Source: an uncultured delta proteobacterium (GTDB taxonomy: Bacteria > Desulfobacterota > Binatia > Binatales > Binataceae). From it: a stretch of 64,000 nt of DNA. A program made the position numbers and the translations under genes. The notes beneath the pieces were generated by a model. The model saw only the letters and a list, made by a program, of their open reading frames with translations. It was not told the origin of the DNA and searched no databases. This document shows, piece by piece, positions 37,447-64,000 of the stretch. The stretch covers positions 480,001 to 544,000 of the forward strand of contig CAVQEQ010000003.1 of NCBI GenBank assembly GCA_963711565.1. The letters are read 5' to 3'. The first letter of the stretch is position 1; every line of letters starts with the position of its first letter.

Positions 37447-40083
37447 TCAGTTGCAGCTCAAGACGACAGTATCGGTGCTCGTTCCGCTCAGCGAGACGCT
37501 GCCATTGCCCGGCACGCCCGGCGTCACCGCATTTGACGGGTTGGTCGCGTCCCGCGCGATGCAAAGACTCGCGGTCGTAACGCACACGTTGCTGAATGTC
37601 CCTGCTCCCGCGGCCAGGGTAACCGAGCCCTTGCACGGTGTCATCGTCACGACCCCCGCTGTCGTCAACAGTGGTGCACTACCCCAGCCATTCAGCAGTG
37701 GATTCACAAGTATCACCGACTGGGTGCCAGTGCCGGTCACTTTCACTATCTGAGATGGCGAACCTTCGATCGATCCCAGCAGGGTTCCTATCACGGACGC
37801 GTTGCCGGGGCCGTCCAGCCATAGCGCGGGCGCCGCGCTTGCCGTAAACACCTGCCCGCCAAAGATATCTACGTTGCTGATCGCCGATCCGTAGATGCCG
37901 GCTTTGAAAGTTCCAGTGGCGCCATTCTCCACATCCCACCAGGGCGAATGGATTTCCAGGCTGACTCCGCCACCGGGCGGCATGACTATCCCATAGGCGC
38001 TGCCGGTACCAACGCCGCCGTTTTGCACGAACACAGGATTGATAAGGGTTCCGGCGCCACCGAAGTTATAGCCGGCCCATCCACCATTCACCTTGGTATA
38101 TATAAAGTTGTTGTCGTTGCTGTTGTTCACGATCCCATAGCGTCCAGGCCTCGAGTCAACAGTTATGTCGTGAAAATTGTTTTCGAAGGCCAGGTTCCAG
38201 ACTTCCAGACCCATGTCCATGCCCGACATCTGGATCGGCCCGATATCATCATCGTGCGCTGCGTCCACTACGATTCCCGAATCGTCCAGCCCGATCGCAC
38301 CTATCGCTATGTCGCGGATGCTGTTGCGAGTAAGTGTGGTTACTCCTGTGCGATTTGTGTTGTACTCGAATAGCCAGCCGCTGCCGGCAAAGTCATAGGC
38401 CTTTACAAAAGGTGAGCCGTTCGGGTTCTTCTCGAAGTTAGTCAGGATCAAGGTGTTGGAGTCAGCGTTGAACTTGGAATTTGGTACGGTGGCGATGGTG
38501 CCGGTCCATCTGGCTATCTTGGAAATGCGCACGGAGTCGATATAACCTTTGATCGCACCCTCCTGCGCGGAGCCGTTCGGCCAGCTTTGACCCGCCCAAC
38601 GTCCTACATCGACATCTTCAGTCGGATCCTGAACGATCGCGCCGGTCACAGCGAGCGACGCGGCGACAGCGCAACCGGATGCGCCCGGCGTACAGTCATA
38701 CAGGCGAAGCGTTGTCCCATCGTAGGTCAGTGCTACGTATAGGATCGTGTTGAGTGGGACCGCGGGCCCGCTGGCATCATGATTTCCGGTGGTAGTGGTG
38801 AGGTATCCGTCCAGATTCCCGCCATTGATTCTCAGCAGTGACGCCGCGGCGTATCCCGCGCTGCTCGGTACCGACCCGCTGCCTGCTATAACTCCATCTC
38901 CGGCACTTATATCTTCTATGTAGGCCTCGATGGTGAAGGCCGATAGGCCACTAAGATTCAAGCCATCGGGAGTACCCAAAGGACCGAAGCGCCCGCCCCA
39001 TTCGCGCAGATTCAAATAGTAGTTGCTTTGGTTGATCGTAAAATCCGCCGCGTTACCCGCGCCCGCGACCAGCGAGGCGACAGTCGGCAGCCCCTGGTAT
39101 CCGGTACCTACTACCGCAATCGTTTTGCCGAAGTCGTAGGCCGGCACCAGCACTGACGAGTAGCGCCCGGCTCCAACCAGTTGCAGGCCGGAACAATTCA
39201 TCCACAAAGGATTGGACAGGTAGTAAGGCGCGGGCGGCAAAAACACCTGGCCGGCGACGTTGGTAAAGTTGCCGGCGCCGTCGGCGCCCGTATTAACCGC
39301 GCACGCCGCGTTGATAGCGGCCTGGATAGCACCTGAATCGTCGGTGCTACCGTCGCCCTTGGCGCCGAAGGCCTTGACGTTGTAAATCCCGTTGACGTTG
39401 AAGCCGTTGAGCGCATCAGAGCCGTCGCCGCGCGCACCGGCCATCGTGTTGACCTTCGCGCCCGTCTGCCCGGAATAAATCGGCGCCTTGCCGCCCATCA
39501 CGGTCTGCACAGTGGGGGCAGGCAGCGTGCCTGAAAGGTCGCCGCCGGTCATCGCGGTGGACCTCGTGACCGGCACCTGGCCGCCGAGCACGGTGGCTAC
39601 GGTGGGGTTCGGCAACGAGCCGCTCAAGTCTCCGCCCGAGGTTTGCCCGAATGAAATCGCATCACCGGCATTTGTCGCGTTGGCCAGCGACGTGACTTTG
39701 TTGCCGTTGGCGTTGAGATTTGTTTCGAGTGCGCCGATCGCACAATACCATTCTCCGCGATCTCCACGCGCCCACGCGCCGCTGCCGCCACCGACGCATG
39801 GGGTCGCTTGCTTGCAATCCTTGCAATAGAGAATCAATCCGTCCTGCTCGGGCGGCAGATTGGCAAAGGTTGGGCCGACGACAAACGGCAAGATGGGCTG
39901 TGTGCCGGAAAAGCGGTTGTTGATCGCCTCGCGGAACTGAAGTCCCGCGCCGACGCCGGTGAAATTCGGAATCGGGGAATACGCACCGGGCGGCGGCAGG
40001 TTTTGCGCGCGCGCGCTTGAGAAGGAGGCCAGTAGCGCAAATACAGACGCTAAAAGAACCGGCCACCAAGTCCGTTTCGACAT
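37447..40083 (-). CDS. Secreted tailspike-like protein: fibre repeats, pectate-lyase-3/beta-helix and LamG-like domain
   Basis: Signal peptide; two GGDLSGxLPxPTV repeats; YNVKAFGAKGDGSTDDSGAIQAAINAA; LamG-like YVALTYDGTTLRLY...GYIDSVRIS; Asn/Gly-rich beta-helix. Confidence 0.8.
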   Translation of the reverse strand: MSKRTWWPVLLASVFALLASFSSARAQNLPPPGAYSPIPNFTGVGAGLQFREAINNRFSGTQPILPFVVGPTFANLPPEQDGLILYCKDCKQATPCVGGGSGAWARGDRGEWYCAIGALETNLNANGNKVTSLANATNAGDAISFGQTSGGDLSGSLPNPTVATVLGGQVPVTRSTAMTGGDLSGTLPAPTVQTVMGGKAPIYSGQTGAKVNTMAGARGDGSDALNGFNVNGIYNVKAFGAKGDGSTDDSGAIQAAINAACAVNTGADGAGNFTNVAGQVFLPPAPYYLSNPLWMNCSGLQLVGAGRYSSVLVPAYDFGKTIAVVGTGYQGLPTVASLVAGAGNAADFTINQSNYYLNLREWGGRFGPLGTPDGLNLSGLSAFTIEAYIEDISAGDGVIAGSGSVPSSAGYAAASLLRINGGNLDGYLTTTTGNHDASGPAVPLNTILYVALTYDGTTLRLYDCTPGASGCAVAASLAVTGAIVQDPTEDVDVGRWAGQSWPNGSAQEGAIKGYIDSVRISKIARWTGTIATVPNSKFNADSNTLILTNFEKNPNGSPFVKAYDFAGSGWLFEYNTNRTGVTTLTRNSIRDIAIGAIGLDDSGIVVDAAHDDDIGPIQMSGMDMGLEVWNLAFENNFHDITVDSRPGRYGIVNNSNDNNFIYTKVNGGWAGYNFGGAGTLINPVFVQNGGVGTGSAYGIVMPPGGGVSLEIHSPWWDVENGATGTFKAGIYGSAISNVDIFGGQVFTASAAPALWLDGPGNASVIGTLLGSIEGSPSQIVKVTGTGTQSVILVNPLLNGWGSAPLLTTAGVVTMTPCKGSVTLAAGAGTFSNVCVTTASLCIARDATNPSNAVTPGVPGNGSVSLSGTSTDTVVLSCN

Positions 40084-58846: not shown

Positions 58847-60133
58847 TTGGGCGAGAACAACAAGGTCGTAATTATCGGCGCGAACGGGACGATGGGCGCG
58901 GGCGCGGGATGCGTCTTCGCGGGCGCCGGTTACAACGTCACGATGCTGGCGCGGTCGCCGGGCAAGGCGGCGGAAGGATTGACGGATGCGCAGAACGACG
59001 CGCGCGCGGAGGCGATCGCGGAGAGAATCTCGATCGGCGCCTACGACGCCGACCTCGGCCGCACGGTCGGCGAGGCAGCGATTGTGTTCGAGTCGCTCGC
59101 CGAAGATCTGCCGCTCAAGAAACAGTTCTTCGAGCTGATCGACAAGAGCCGGCGTCCTGACGCGATTATCGCGACCGGATCGTCGGGGCTGTCGATCGCG
59201 GAGATGGCGCGCGGGCGGAGCGAGTCGTTCCGCCGCAACTTCCTCGGCGTGCATCTGTTCAATCCGCCGCACGTGATTGTCGGCACTGAAGTGATTCCGG
59301 GACCGGATACCGATCCCGCAGTCGTGAAGAACGTGGTCGCGATACTGACCAAGCGGCTCGGCCGCAAGGTGATCGTCACCAAAGATATGCCGGCGTTTGT
59401 CGGCAATCGCGTCGGCTTCAAAGTATTGAACGAGACTGCGCAACTCGCGGCAGAGCACGGCGTCGCGTACATCGACTATCTGATCGGACCGCATACCGGG
59501 CGCGCGATGGCGCCGCTGGCGACTGTCGATCTCGTCGGCTGGGACGTGCACAAGGCGATCGTCGACAACGTCCATGCGAATTGTAAAGACGAGGCGCACG
59601 AATCGTTCGCGATGCCCGCGTACATGAACGCGGCGATGCGCCACGGATGCCTCGGCGACAAGACGCCCGAGCGTGGCGGTTTCTATCGTCGCGCGGGCAA
59701 GGAAGTTTTCGTGCTCGATCCGAAAACCGGCGGCCACGAGAAATTCGCGAAGCCCGCGCCGATCGAGTTCGTCGAAAAGATGAAACAGTTGCATCATGTG
59801 GGTCGCTACGCCGACGCGTTGAAGGTCCTCGCCGAGGCGCAGGGGGCGGACGCCGACCTGTGCCGGCGCGTGGTGCTCGGTTACGTCAGCTATGCGCTGA
59901 ACCGCGTCGGCGAAGTAGCGGCGAGCGCGGCCGACGTGGACACGATCATGTCGTACGGCTTCAACTGGGCGCCGCCGACGGCGATCGTCGATCTGATCGG
60001 CGCGAAGGACACCGTGGCGATGCTGCAAAAGCTGAAGCTCACGGTGCCCAAAACCGTCGAGCAAGCCGCGTCGCGCGATGCTAAAATGTTTACAGGCGGC
60101 GTACTCGAATACGGCCGGACTTTTGTCGGGTGA
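58847..60133 (+). CDS. 3-hydroxyacyl-CoA dehydrogenase family protein
   Basis: GANGTMG Rossmann motif, ESLAED, HLFNPP, FVGNRVG, DLVGWD. Confidence 0.9.
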   Translation: MGENNKVVIIGANGTMGAGAGCVFAGAGYNVTMLARSPGKAAEGLTDAQNDARAEAIAERISIGAYDADLGRTVGEAAIVFESLAEDLPLKKQFFELIDKSRRPDAIIATGSSGLSIAEMARGRSESFRRNFLGVHLFNPPHVIVGTEVIPGPDTDPAVVKNVVAILTKRLGRKVIVTKDMPAFVGNRVGFKVLNETAQLAAEHGVAYIDYLIGPHTGRAMAPLATVDLVGWDVHKAIVDNVHANCKDEAHESFAMPAYMNAAMRHGCLGDKTPERGGFYRRAGKEVFVLDPKTGGHEKFAKPAPIEFVEKMKQLHHVGRYADALKVLAEAQGADADLCRRVVLGYVSYALNRVGEVAASAADVDTIMSYGFNWAPPTAIVDLIGAKDTVAMLQKLKLTVPKTVEQAASRDAKMFTGGVLEYGRTFVG

Positions 60134-60202
60134 TGGAATTCCCGGGTTGGATGATTAGATTAGTTGCCGTATGATTACGCTCATAATCAATAGGAGGGCG
60201 CG

Positions 60203-61438
60203 ATGACGAAGCCAGCGCCGGTGTACGTATTGGGCGGAGCGCAAACCGACTTTGCCCGCAACTGGACCAAGGAAGGAAAGCATTTCGTGGCGATGATGCG
60301 CGAGGCCACCCTGGCCGCGCTCGAAGCCACGCGGATCGAGCCGCGCGAAGTCGAGACCGCTCACGTCGGCAACTTCGCCGCCGAACTTTACGCCAAGCAG
60401 GGTCACATCGGCGCATTTTTCGTCGAGGTCGATCCGGCGTTTTCGGGACTGCCGACGAGCCGGCATGAGGCGGCGTGTGCGTCGGGCTCGATCGCGCTGA
60501 TTGCAGCGTCGGCCGAGATTGAAGCCGCGCGCTACGACCTGGCGTGCGTGGTCGGCGTCGAACAGATGAAAACCGTCGATTCGACCACCGGCGGCGACTA
60601 TCTCGGGACCGCGGCGTGGTACGAGCGTGAGGCCAAGGGAATTGAGTTCCCGTTCCCGAAACTGTTCGGCCGGCTTGGCGACGAGTACGACAAACGCTAC
60701 GGCCTGAAGGACGAGCATCTCGCGCACATTTCGGCGGTGAATTATTCCAACGCCAAGCGCAATCCGAATGCGCAGACCCGCAACTGGTTCATGAGCGAGA
60801 GTCACGCGCAGCACGAAAGCAAGTTCAACCAGGTCATCGGCGGCCGGATCAAAGTGAGCGATTGCTCGCAGGTCACCGACGGCTCGGTCGCGGTTTTCCT
60901 CGCGTCGGAAAAGTTTGCGAGCGCGTGGGCCAAGCGCAACGGCAAGACGCTCGCGGATATTCCGCGCATCCTTGGCTGGGGCCATCATACGGCGCCGCTC
61001 GAATTCGACACCAAGGTGGCGGAGAGCCGCGACAACGCGTACGTGCTGCCGCATACTCGGCAGGCGATTCTCGACGCCTTCAAGCGCGCGGAGATCGGGA
61101 CGGTGGCCGAGCTCTCGGGAATCGAGACGCACGACTGCTTCACCACGTCGGAGTACATGGCGATCGACCATTTCGGAATCACCAAGCCGGGCGAATCGTG
61201 GAAGGCGGTCGAGGAAGGCGTGATCGAGCTCGGCGGCAAGCTGCCGATCAATCCGAGCGGCGGGCTGATTGGCGCGGGCCATCCGGTGGGCGCGACCGGA
61301 GTGCGCCAGATGCTCGATTGTCATCGACAAATCACGCATAGCGCGGGCGACTATCAAGTCGAAGGCGCAAAGAAATTCGCGATGCTGAACATCGGCGGCA
61401 GCGGCACCACCAGCTGCGTATTCATCGTCGGCAAGTAA
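60203..61438 (+). CDS. Acetyl-CoA acetyltransferase (SCP2-type thiolase)
   Basis: EAACASG, ETHDCF, NPSGGL...GHPVGATG. Confidence 0.93.
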   Translation: MTKPAPVYVLGGAQTDFARNWTKEGKHFVAMMREATLAALEATRIEPREVETAHVGNFAAELYAKQGHIGAFFVEVDPAFSGLPTSRHEAACASGSIALIAASAEIEAARYDLACVVGVEQMKTVDSTTGGDYLGTAAWYEREAKGIEFPFPKLFGRLGDEYDKRYGLKDEHLAHISAVNYSNAKRNPNAQTRNWFMSESHAQHESKFNQVIGGRIKVSDCSQVTDGSVAVFLASEKFASAWAKRNGKTLADIPRILGWGHHTAPLEFDTKVAESRDNAYVLPHTRQAILDAFKRAEIGTVAELSGIETHDCFTTSEYMAIDHFGITKPGESWKAVEEGVIELGGKLPINPSGGLIGAGHPVGATGVRQMLDCHRQITHSAGDYQVEGAKKFAMLNIGGSGTTSCVFIVGK

Positions 61439-61462
61439 GCGCGCGCGATTTTCGAATTGTCG

Positions 61463-61498
61463 AAGCGGCGGTCCCGAAAGGATCGCCGCTTTTCTTTT
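61463..61498 (+). terminator. Rho-independent terminator
   Basis: AAGCGGCGGTCC-CGAAA-GGATCGCCGCTT stem followed by TTCTTTT, just after the thiolase stop. Confidence 0.85.
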
Positions 61499-61542
61499 GA
61501 TTCCTGATTGGCTCGCGCTTGGCGGCGCGGCACAATTGCCGG

Positions 61543-62457
61543 ATGCCCAGGAAAACTCCGTTCATCCTTGTCGATGTGTTCACCTCGCGGCCGTTCGGCG
61601 GCAATCAGCTCGCCGTGTTCACCGAAGGCGCCGCACTCAGCGCGAGCGAGATGCAGGAGCTGGCGCATGAGATGAACTTCAGCGAATCGACGTTCGTGAT
61701 GCCGCCCGATTCTTCGGGCGCGCGACGCGTTAGGATTTTCACGCCGACGGTGGAGGTTCCAATGGCCGGGCATCCTACGGTCGGCACCGCCTGGGTGCTC
61801 GCGAGTCGTGGCGAGATCGCGCTCAAATCTGCAAGCGTCGATGCGACCTTGCATCTCGGGATTGGGCCGGTGACGGTCACGGTCGAGAGCACCGGCGGCA
61901 AGCCGGATTTTGTCTGGATGGCGCATCGCGAGGCGGAGTTCGGCGCGAAGCGAACAGATGTCGAGCGGTTCGCGGCGGCGCTCGGAATCGCTCCGACGGA
62001 TATCCGCAGTGACCTGCCGATCCAGATCGTGTCGACCGGCTTTCCGTTCGTTTTTGTCCCGCTTCGCAGTATCGAAGCGCTCGGCAGATGCTATCCCAAC
62101 AAGGCCGCCATCGCGGCGCTGTTCAAGGCGGGGCCGCGGGAGCAGCCGCCTCTCATATATATGTTTGTCGCAGGGCAGTCGGGCGAATTCTCGGTTCGGT
62201 CGCGGATGTTCGCGCCGTTTAACGGCATTGCGGAGGACCCCGCGACCGGCAGCGCCGCGGCTCCATTCGGCGCGTACGCCGCGACTTATGGATTAATCAA
62301 GCCCGCGCCCAAGACTGAATTCCTGATTCAGCAAGGCGTCGAGATGGGACGGCCGAGCGAGATTCGCGTCGAGGTTACGCGCAAGGAGAGCGGCGCGTTC
62401 GCGATTCGAATCGGCGGGCGATGCGCGATCGTCGGCGAAGGTTCGATGTTCCTCTAA
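61543..62457 (+). CDS. PhzF family epimerase/isomerase
   Basis: DVFT...GGNQLAV, NFSESTF, RIFTP..E.PMAGHPT, EDPATGSA. Confidence 0.93.
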   Translation: MPRKTPFILVDVFTSRPFGGNQLAVFTEGAALSASEMQELAHEMNFSESTFVMPPDSSGARRVRIFTPTVEVPMAGHPTVGTAWVLASRGEIALKSASVDATLHLGIGPVTVTVESTGGKPDFVWMAHREAEFGAKRTDVERFAAALGIAPTDIRSDLPIQIVSTGFPFVFVPLRSIEALGRCYPNKAAIAALFKAGPREQPPLIYMFVAGQSGEFSVRSRMFAPFNGIAEDPATGSAAAPFGAYAATYGLIKPAPKTEFLIQQGVEMGRPSEIRVEVTRKESGAFAIRIGGRCAIVGEGSMFL

Positions 62458-62484
62458 CGCGCGGGCGCGGCTATTGTTGTGAGT

Positions 62485-63069
62485 ATGGACGATCGCCATA
62501 TTCCGTCGGTCGGCGAGAAGGCTCCCGAGTTTGCGCTCGCGGACTCGACCGGCGTGGTGCGCCGGCTCGACCACCTGGTCGCCGGCGGATTGTGCGTCGT
62601 CGTTTTCTATCGCGGACATTGGTGACCGTTCTGCCTCCGCCAGTTGGCGGACTACTCGAAGCATCTCGAGGATTTTCGCGCGGCCGGCGCCGAGCTGGTC
62701 GCGATCTCGGTTGACGACGCCGCTCGCGCGGAGCCGGTGCGCCAGGAGCTTGGCGTCAAATTTCCGCTGCTGTGCGACACGCGGCGCGAGGTCGTCAAGA
62801 CGTACGGCCTGCTGAACAGCGGAGAGAAAGGCGGAATAGCATTCCCCGCTTCATTTGTGATCGATCGCGAGCGCGTCGTGCGTTTCCGCGCGCTCGAAGA
62901 AGTCGTACCGCGCGTCAACGTGGACCAATTACTCGAACTCGTCCGTGACCTTGGCAAGGGCGTCGAATCGCAAACCAAACCGCGCACGCGCGGCGTCTTT
63001 CCCGGACTGATGTTCCTGCAGGCGACCATGAACGCGCTTCGGCACGGCGTCCGTTCGCCAAATAAATAA
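62485..63069 (+). CDS. Peroxiredoxin-like (AhpC/TSA) selenoprotein, Sec at codon 47
   Basis: ATG 62485 reads MDDRHIPSVGEKAPEFALADSTG...VVVFYRGHW-TGA(62623)-PFCLRQL and continues in frame into ORF 62644..63069. TGA occupies the first Cys position of the WCPxC motif. Confidence 0.88.
62626..62651 (+). promoter_or_regulatory. Candidate bacterial SECIS element
   Basis: After a 10-nt spacer following the UGA: stem TCCGCC / GGCGGA closing an AGTT loop (G-U in the apical loop). Confidence 0.7.
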
Positions 63070-63117
63070 CTTTCCGTTCGGGCTCGCCGAGCCTATGATT
63101 CAGCGGATGAGGTCTGC

Positions 63118-64000
63118 ATGAATCGTCGATATATTGTCGCGCTTTCGTTTCTTCTTGCCTTCGGACTCATCGCGTGCGCGGGCGGCGGTGTGACCGAAAC
63201 GCCGCCGGTCTTCGTCACGAGTCCGCAAGGGAACCGCGTCGAGGCGCTCGCGATGACCACGCCGCGGGCGAACGCCGCCGCGATTCGGCTGCGCGATGGA
63301 CGCGTGCTGATTTGCGGCGGCACCGCAACCGGACAAATCGGCGGCGTGCTGTCGAGCGCCGAGCTGTACGACCCGGTCGCGCGCACCTTCACTCCCACCG
63401 GTTCGATGACGGTGCCGCGCACCGGACAGACGATCACGCTGCTGCAGGACGGGCGCGTGCTGCTCACGGGCGGAGACAAGAACGCCGGCTATCGATCGCA
63501 ACTCGCCAGTGCGGAGATTTACGATCCATCGACAGGCACCTTCAGCGCGACCGGCTCGATGTCAACGCCGCGCGAAGGGCATACCGCAACCTTACTTCGC
63601 GACGGGCAGGTGCTGGTCGCGGGCGGCAGCCCCAACGGCATCCAGACGACGGGTAGCGCCGAGATTTACGATCCAGCGAGCGGGACGTTTCTCCGCACGG
63701 GCCATCTGCATCAGCCGCGCGTCGCGCATGTCGCCGCGCTGCTCGGCACGGGCCAGGTCTTGATCGCCGGCGGCGGCCGTGGCGGCATGCCGGGCGGATA
63801 CATCTCGTACGACACGGCGGAAACGTATGACCCGGCGACGGGCAGGTTTACGACGGTGTTCGCGCACATGAAGAGCGATCGCGTCGGCGCGGCCGCGGTC
63901 AGACTCAACGATGGGCGCGTGCTGATCGTCGGCGGCAAGAGCGGCAAAGTCATCGTCGGCATGCGCACTCTCGCGTCGATGGCGCCGCTTAACACCGCGG
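63118..64000 (+). CDS. Kelch-repeat (galactose oxidase-like propeller) lipoprotein, 3'-truncated
   Basis: MNRRYIVALSFLLAFGLIAC lipobox; repeated R..H.ATLL.DG.VLVAGG...AEIYDP..GTF..TGSM units; open to the window end and absent from the ORF track. Confidence 0.9.
   Translation, partial: MNRRYIVALSFLLAFGLIACAGGGVTETPPVFVTSPQGNRVEALAMTTPRANAAAIRLRDGRVLICGGTATGQIGGVLSSAELYDPVARTFTPTGSMTVPRTGQTITLLQDGRVLLTGGDKNAGYRSQLASAEIYDPSTGTFSATGSMSTPREGHTATLLRDGQVLVAGGSPNGIQTTGSAEIYDPASGTFLRTGHLHQPRVAHVAALLGTGQVLIAGGGRGGMPGGYISYDTAETYDPATGRFTTVFAHMKSDRVGAAAVRLNDGRVLIVGGKSGKVIVGMRTLASMAPLNTA

Follow-up and report, generated by a model that had tools for sequence, protein, structure and literature searches.

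Analysis of the 64,000-nt stretch of DNA (hereafter the window) revealed a gene of 194 codons that encodes a small redox protein and contains an in-frame UGA, almost certainly decoded as selenocysteine (Sec); its database records are shortened. The product is very likely a 194-residue thioredoxin-fold protein with Sec encoded by codon 47, and it probably acts as a cytoplasmic selenol/thiol oxidoreductase. Support for the Sec reading comes from conservation and not from the downstream hairpin by itself. The find is solid but ordinary, the type of protein being that of a long-predicted selenoprotein family.

Table 1. Features of the selenoprotein gene, with positions in the window.
Feature	Positions	Strand	Remarks
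Full gene, AhpC/TSA (thioredoxin-fold) selenoprotein with UxxC	62485..63069	+	ATG start at 62485; 194 codons plus TAA (63067-63069)
In-frame TGA, codon 47, inferred selenocysteine	62623..62625	+	27/27 orthologues; contigs of 3 DNA runs
Cys50, second residue of UxxC	62632..62634	+	aligned to peroxidatic Cys of archaeal peroxiredoxin (Prx); inferred resolving Cys
Putative bacterial SECIS, TCCGCC-AGTT-GGCGGA	62636..62651	+	6-bp stem; loop AGUU 62642-62645; G 62643 is +18
TTG (Leu54), false start of the 141-aa product in gene calls	62644..62646	+	first two bases are hairpin loop bases
Pro121, at the Prx Arg position	62845..62847	+	from alignment; inferred thioredoxin-type cis-Pro
C-terminal tail, residues ~163-194	62971..63066	+	strand 168-170, basic helix 176-187; common to branch

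Reading frame and database annotation

A sequence-only reading of this DNA had proposed an AhpC/TSA-type gene running through the TGA, and all of its motifs were found (VGEKAPEF, FYRGHW*PFC, LVAISVD, FPLLCD, and PASFVID), with 147 in-frame codons counted downstream of the TGA where about that number had been claimed. The match to the Pfam family AhpC-TSA (PF00578) spans the TGA, extending from residue 9 to 134 (E 2e-29, 102 bits vs. a cut-off of 26), and no NCBIfam cut-off was passed by the read-through protein. As the sequence-only reading had also observed, the open reading frame listed at the locus comprises only part of the sequence after the TGA, a 141-aa piece from TTG 62644. The same shortening recurs in the databases, in which many 50%-identity cluster representatives are shortened at the same codon as the annotation of this gene, and in which members of the tailed branch described below are mostly recorded truncated at codon 54. 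The full-length gene corrects a systematic misannotation, all of the 120 protein matches listed being the 141-142-aa piece and lacking the active site.

Taken at face value, these uniform records would mean that the UGA ends a 46-aa peptide and that a 141-aa protein begins at the conserved TTG, which is a possible start codon and nearly invariant. This is very improbable, however, since such a piece would be missing both the first core strand and the motif of the active site, no purine-rich ribosome site was seen by eye ahead of the TTG, and the part upstream is under purifying selection, its frame running uninterrupted for 40 codons or more in 112 of the 113 loci with enough DNA. Full-length relatives with Cys at the site also exist (P0128, P0129), and a real stop would be expected to drift among TAA, TAG, and TGA in the way that the terminal stop of the 27 orthologues does (TAA in 20, TAG in 4, TGA in 3).

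Conservation of the UGA codon

Regarding the sequence itself, the TGA letters were unvaried in contigs of three DNA runs from three studies, one of which may be the source sample; the best-matching sequencing runs are soil metagenomes. An orthologue is present in 27 of 36 genus relatives, and codon counts refer to 27 sequences, namely the orthologues of 26 relatives and this gene, one orthologue split by a frameshift (G036) being excluded, although its first piece has the TGA too. Codon 47 is TGA in all 27 orthologues, at 61-88% identity. Close orthologues (82-87% identity) are labelled Candidatus Binatus sp. or uncultured deltaproteobacterium. The ratio dN/dS is 0.24 upstream vs. 0.12 downstream of the TGA. 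Among distant loci, codon 47 was TGC or TGT in 58 of 67, in a motif search that favours Cys codons and left 9 unmatched, and Cys was also read by hand in 5 of these 9. The in-frame UGA therefore aligns with a Cys of homologues, which is the pattern taken as a criterion for selenoproteins.

The sequence-only reading had predicted Cys or Sec at position 47, which agrees with the Cys of the homologues and with the Sec that published selenoproteins have in the same motif. It had named TGC or TGT without a hairpin in close relatives or reads as grounds for refutation; instead, both TGA and hairpin are kept in relatives and in independent contigs. Its reading of the UGA as Sec is accordingly borne out by the conserved TGA, the genes of the Sec machinery, the Cys homologues, and the published Sec motif.

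Decoding of the UGA as Trp or Gly by a variant code, or leaky read-through, is even less probable than an internal start. One relative (P0139) has Trp written at the site (GHWWPFC), probably because a gene caller translated a TGA as Trp, but TGA ends approximately 648 long open reading frames in the genome, the sole tRNA with a TCA anticodon among 48 is tRNA-Sec, and homologues have Cys at the site. A sequencing error or a recent nonsense mutation in a pseudogene, which might be suspected from at least one indel error in the assembly (in selD) and from frameshifts in three orthologues (G033, G036, and L101), is the least probable of all and is refuted by the TGA in independent contigs and in 27/27 orthologues and by dN/dS values well under 1 both before and after the codon.

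The putative SECIS hairpin

The 6-bp hairpin with an AGUU loop claimed by the sequence-only reading is present, its first base being the 11th after the UGA; as evidence it holds through its conservation but not alone, folding z-scores (-0.85, -1.23, and -0.49) not singling it out above chance. The published rule for bacterial SECIS elements (bSECIS) prescribes a loop of 3-9 nt, a stem of 4-16 bp, a G in loop positions 1-2, a spacing of 16-37 nt, and a minimum free energy of -7.5 or below; these constraints and a G[G/U] loop pattern are given in the accessible text of a 2026 review (PMC13188914). Here the loop is 4 nt, the stem 6 bp, the G at loop position 2, and the spacing 16 nt, all four within the constraints, and the energy is -10.2 to -10.9 kcal/mol. 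In a re-implementation of the rule, however, passes were also obtained for 63 of the 648 TGA codons that are probably true stops and for 177 of the 2000 Cys codons sampled from this genome, so that the hairpin on its own proves little, about 9-10% of control codons doing the same. The exact geometry with the loop G at +18 was found at 0/648 of these stops and 11/2000 of these Cys codons.

Codon choice is more informative. Silent changes in hairpin codons 52-55 were absent from the 27 orthologues, such invariance being seen in 1 of 71 other conserved degenerate columns, and Leu54 is TTG in all 27, a codon that accounts for 11% of Leu codons genome-wide. A metagenome scan, using a pattern in which the TGA and the residues were fixed and third positions left free, returned at least 120 loci encoding proteins 28-88% identical; among the 120 loci listed, the loop codons were CAG in 120 and TTG in 119, and GCG was kept in 114. 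Homologues that code for Cys and share the Gln-Leu used CAG in 13/18 and TTG in 3/18. The loop G-U is among the bases fixed in this way, in agreement with the G[G/U] loop pattern of the bSECIS model. Judged from these codons, the hairpin sequence is under selection beyond that on the protein.

Pairing itself gave a different kind of result. Across 45 distinct sequences, 91% of cells were paired, two-sided compensatory changes were found in 0 of 6 pairs, 18 one-sided G-U changes occurred in the stem, and covariation was not above that of shuffles. A natural C62637A variant in two runs breaks the second stem pair, as does one similar change among the 120 listed metagenome loci. Of the four loci at the greatest distance, three pair again in a shifted register with the same loop start, while the fourth folds best otherwise. 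As an internal control, the two other selenoprotein genes of known families in the genome have closely similar C-A-G-U-C hairpins, and a filter built from the three C-A-G-U-C genes returned those three only out of 135,037 TGA triplets, a post hoc result that speaks to specificity only. The Sec-type selD of relatives likewise has its hairpin loop G at +18. Rfam gave 0 matches within the 64-kb window. With hardly any doubt, SelB carrying Sec-tRNA would recognise the hairpin loop, with its G at +18, and insert Sec.

Selenocysteine machinery and other selenoprotein genes

The genome (4.84 Mb, 94.9% complete) contains selA, selB, and selD, each scoring over its curated cut-off, and a tRNA-Sec whose anticodon is TCA; the machinery predicted by the sequence-only reading is therefore present, and the absence that would have spoken against it was not seen. 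Across 36 genus relatives, 6 of the 7 without selA and without tRNA-Sec also lack the gene, which is found in 26 of the 29 with either of the two; this co-occurrence is a pattern and not a statistic, kin being not independent. The exception (G022, 82% complete) has the gene and no match for selA or tRNA-Sec, with selB and a TGA-type selD present. The selD gene (L010; C3:1271890-1272900, minus strand) is frameshifted near its N-terminus in the assembly, and one extra base at this site in contigs of 4/4 runs indicates an assembly error rather than a broken pathway.

The catalytic codon of selD is Cys (TGC) in this genome and TGA in most genus relatives. A formate dehydrogenase alpha-like gene (C4:1387031-1388326, minus strand) encodes Cys where Sec is usual (CARVCH), and the six PF00384 matches in the genome are all free of stops. 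At 94.9% completeness, the genome appears to keep Sec decoding with neither a Sec-containing FdhA nor a Sec-containing SelD, unlike a generalisation made in the accessible part of an earlier study (PMC1794560).

The second selenoprotein gene (L169; C3:1423001, minus strand) encodes a ResA-like WAxxUGC protein (WAxxUGC_long, 355 bits vs. a cut-off of 300) with a 7-bp hairpin and loop G at +22, and the third (L170; C2:186496, minus strand) a SelT/SelW/SelH protein (CxxU), above the TIGR02174 cut-off, with a 7-bp hairpin and loop G at +23. Two untailed FYRGHWUPFC selenoproteins (L057, L058) have a different hairpin of 8 bp with the loop from +25. A high-scoring TGA at C3:361286 (minus strand) was rejected by eye as a selenoprotein site, since it has no hairpin and looks like the genuine end of a cytochrome b-like gene, with a small open reading frame behind it. 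A search of the genome for the UGSC family gave 0 matches, its control likewise matching nowhere.

Gene neighbourhood and expression

Upstream of the gene (60203-62457) lie a thiolase (PRK06289, above cut-off) and a PhzF-family isomerase, and downstream (63118-64000) a Kelch-repeat protein, an arrangement that recurs in close relatives only (about 33-36 loci). Among 107 oriented loci no neighbour was shared across the branch, giving no hint of a substrate. No sigma-70-like promoter was found in 60100-63300, and one RNA run (share 0.11) yielded two 151-nt contigs at depth 2, which is too thin as proof of transcription. Elsewhere in the window ARAGORN called a 92-nt second tRNA-Val(gac) at ~37607-37698 (minus strand), probably a false call because Rfam had no match in the window.

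Protein fold and predicted activity

The AlphaFold2 model, built from a 78-sequence alignment, has a pLDDT of 96 and puts UxxC where helix 48-59 begins. The highest-ranking structural match is AhpE (5id2; Z 22.7, rmsd 1.4 over 152 residues), with further matches to BcpB (5epf; Z 22.1) and ResA (2f9s; Z 16.8). In alignment to peroxiredoxins, U47 falls on the Thr, C50 on the peroxidatic Cys, and P121 on the Arg, the last being Pro in 100 of the 102 metagenome relatives with the motif matched. We take this layout to be the thioredoxin arrangement, and from these positions we infer that Sec47 would be the nucleophile and Cys50 the resolving residue. Sec47 would thus attack a substrate in its oxidised form, for which a protein disulfide is the best candidate; the mixed bond would then be resolved by Cys50 to give a U47-C50 selenenylsulfide, and this would be re-reduced by thioredoxin or a small-thiol system, a route that the aligned residues make reasonably probable.

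The main rival to a disulfide reductase is direct peroxide reduction by the selenol, the enzyme then being a peroxidase in the style of glutathione peroxidase, in which Sec47 would reduce H2O2 or else organic/lipid hydroperoxides and the resolving residue would be Cys50 or Cys97. In the structural comparison the top matches, true peroxiredoxins, rank above ResA, so that a peroxide substrate is conceivable, the scaffold being closest to AhpE/BCP peroxiredoxins, and selenols react with peroxides without an Arg of the peroxiredoxin type. Cys97 (62773-62775) is conserved in 75 of the 94 Sec-branch loci matched vs. 3 of the 48 Cys-type homologues matched, as counted with a loose regular expression, and its TGC codon is invariant in the 27 orthologues. 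Some tailed Cys-type relatives (P0140, P0192, L102, L103) are fused to a Polyketide_cyc2 (START-like) domain, which also agrees with a peroxidase. On the other hand, the protein has neither the PxxxTxxC motif nor the Arg of peroxiredoxins, with a thioredoxin-type xxC and Pro instead, no conserved peroxide-defence neighbour accompanies the gene, and the accessible part of a survey of cyanobacterial peroxiredoxins describes PRX-like2 proteins without the catalytic traits of peroxiredoxins (PMC3514251). A peroxidase is accordingly possible but unlikely, and reduction of a protein disulfide is preferred.

The tailed branch

The C-terminal tail falls outside residues 3-162, the span of most structural matches, and is common to the branch down to ~40% identity; the final 30 residues carry a mean net charge of +5.6 in 67 complete loci. 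No NCBIfam model covers the tailed branch, and at E 1e-25 a phylum-wide profile search recovered it from one of 200 other genomes. What is mildly new is that the gene sits in this widespread branch, marked by the basic C-terminal helix and lacking a model of its own. A far more tentative suggestion, to which a low probability is given, is that the branch forms a selenoprotein subfamily in its own right, as yet unmodelled and widespread among bacteria of soil and peat, whose basic helix might dock on membranes or on a lipid substrate. Its members might then reduce lipid hydroperoxides in a selenium-dependent manner, as functional analogues of GPX4 in bacteria, and the START-like fusion of the Cys-type relatives points in this direction.

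Comparison with known families

Canonical peroxiredoxins (AhpE, BCP/PrxQ, Prx6; Sec form TxxU) are alike in fold, with Cys50 at the peroxidatic position, but this identity is ruled out, the catalytic Thr and Arg positions being Sec and Pro. The PxxxT/SxxC motif is absent, RGHWUPFC aligning to PADFTPVC with Arg43 and Sec47 instead; Pro121 aligns with the Arg of TVRGVF; Sec stands at the Thr and not the Cys position; and scores are far under every NCBIfam peroxiredoxin cut-off. ResA/TlpA/DsbE proteins share a W-C/U-x-x-C motif and the Pro loop (PRK03147, E 4e-14), but the score of 53 bits compares with a cut-off of 170, and by inspection there is no N-terminal membrane anchor or signal stretch. 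Weak matches to the SelL-related redox protein NF040769 (44 bits vs. a cut-off of 120) and to AhpC-TSA_2 (PF13911, presumably SelU/PRXL2-type; 21 bits vs. a cut-off of 27) do not make the protein a member of either.

By its domain and motif, the gene is a member of the predicted selenoprotein family of Prx-like thiol:disulfide oxidoreductases (UxxC, PF00578). As far as the accessible parts of these sources go, this family was listed as known with 22 sequences in 2005 (PMC1088965), was represented by 225 sequences in the GOS data (PMC2398784), was catalogued as predicted in a 2022 review (PMC9312934), and was graded in 2026 as 'predicted with high confidence' and not experimentally verified (PMC13188914). 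A literature search on selenoproteins in Binatota or Binatus, itself a weak one, found neither taxon name in the 20 papers listed out of 4,503, and 'Binat' is absent from the accessible text of the 2026 review (PMC13188914). The family, also termed 'Prx-like protein' or 'Prx-like 1', shares the Pfam domain and the context F-Y/F-R-G-x-W-U-P-x-C, which FYRGHWUPFC fits, as do the published motifs FYRGAWUPYC of Geobacter and FFRGQWUPYC of Desulfotalea in the accessible part of PMC1794560 (supplement 4). By eye, the four published members available for comparison differ by ~15-35 extra residues at the N-terminus and by an insertion ahead of the Pro loop, both absent here, while this protein is distinguished by its basic C-terminal strand-helix tail. 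Knowledge of Sec decoding itself is unchanged by this gene. As a small, confidently modelled protein, it offers a convenient test case for the activity of the Prx-like UxxC family, and it extends a family whose prediction dates back two decades by a member from a soil bacterium and by a branch with a tail.
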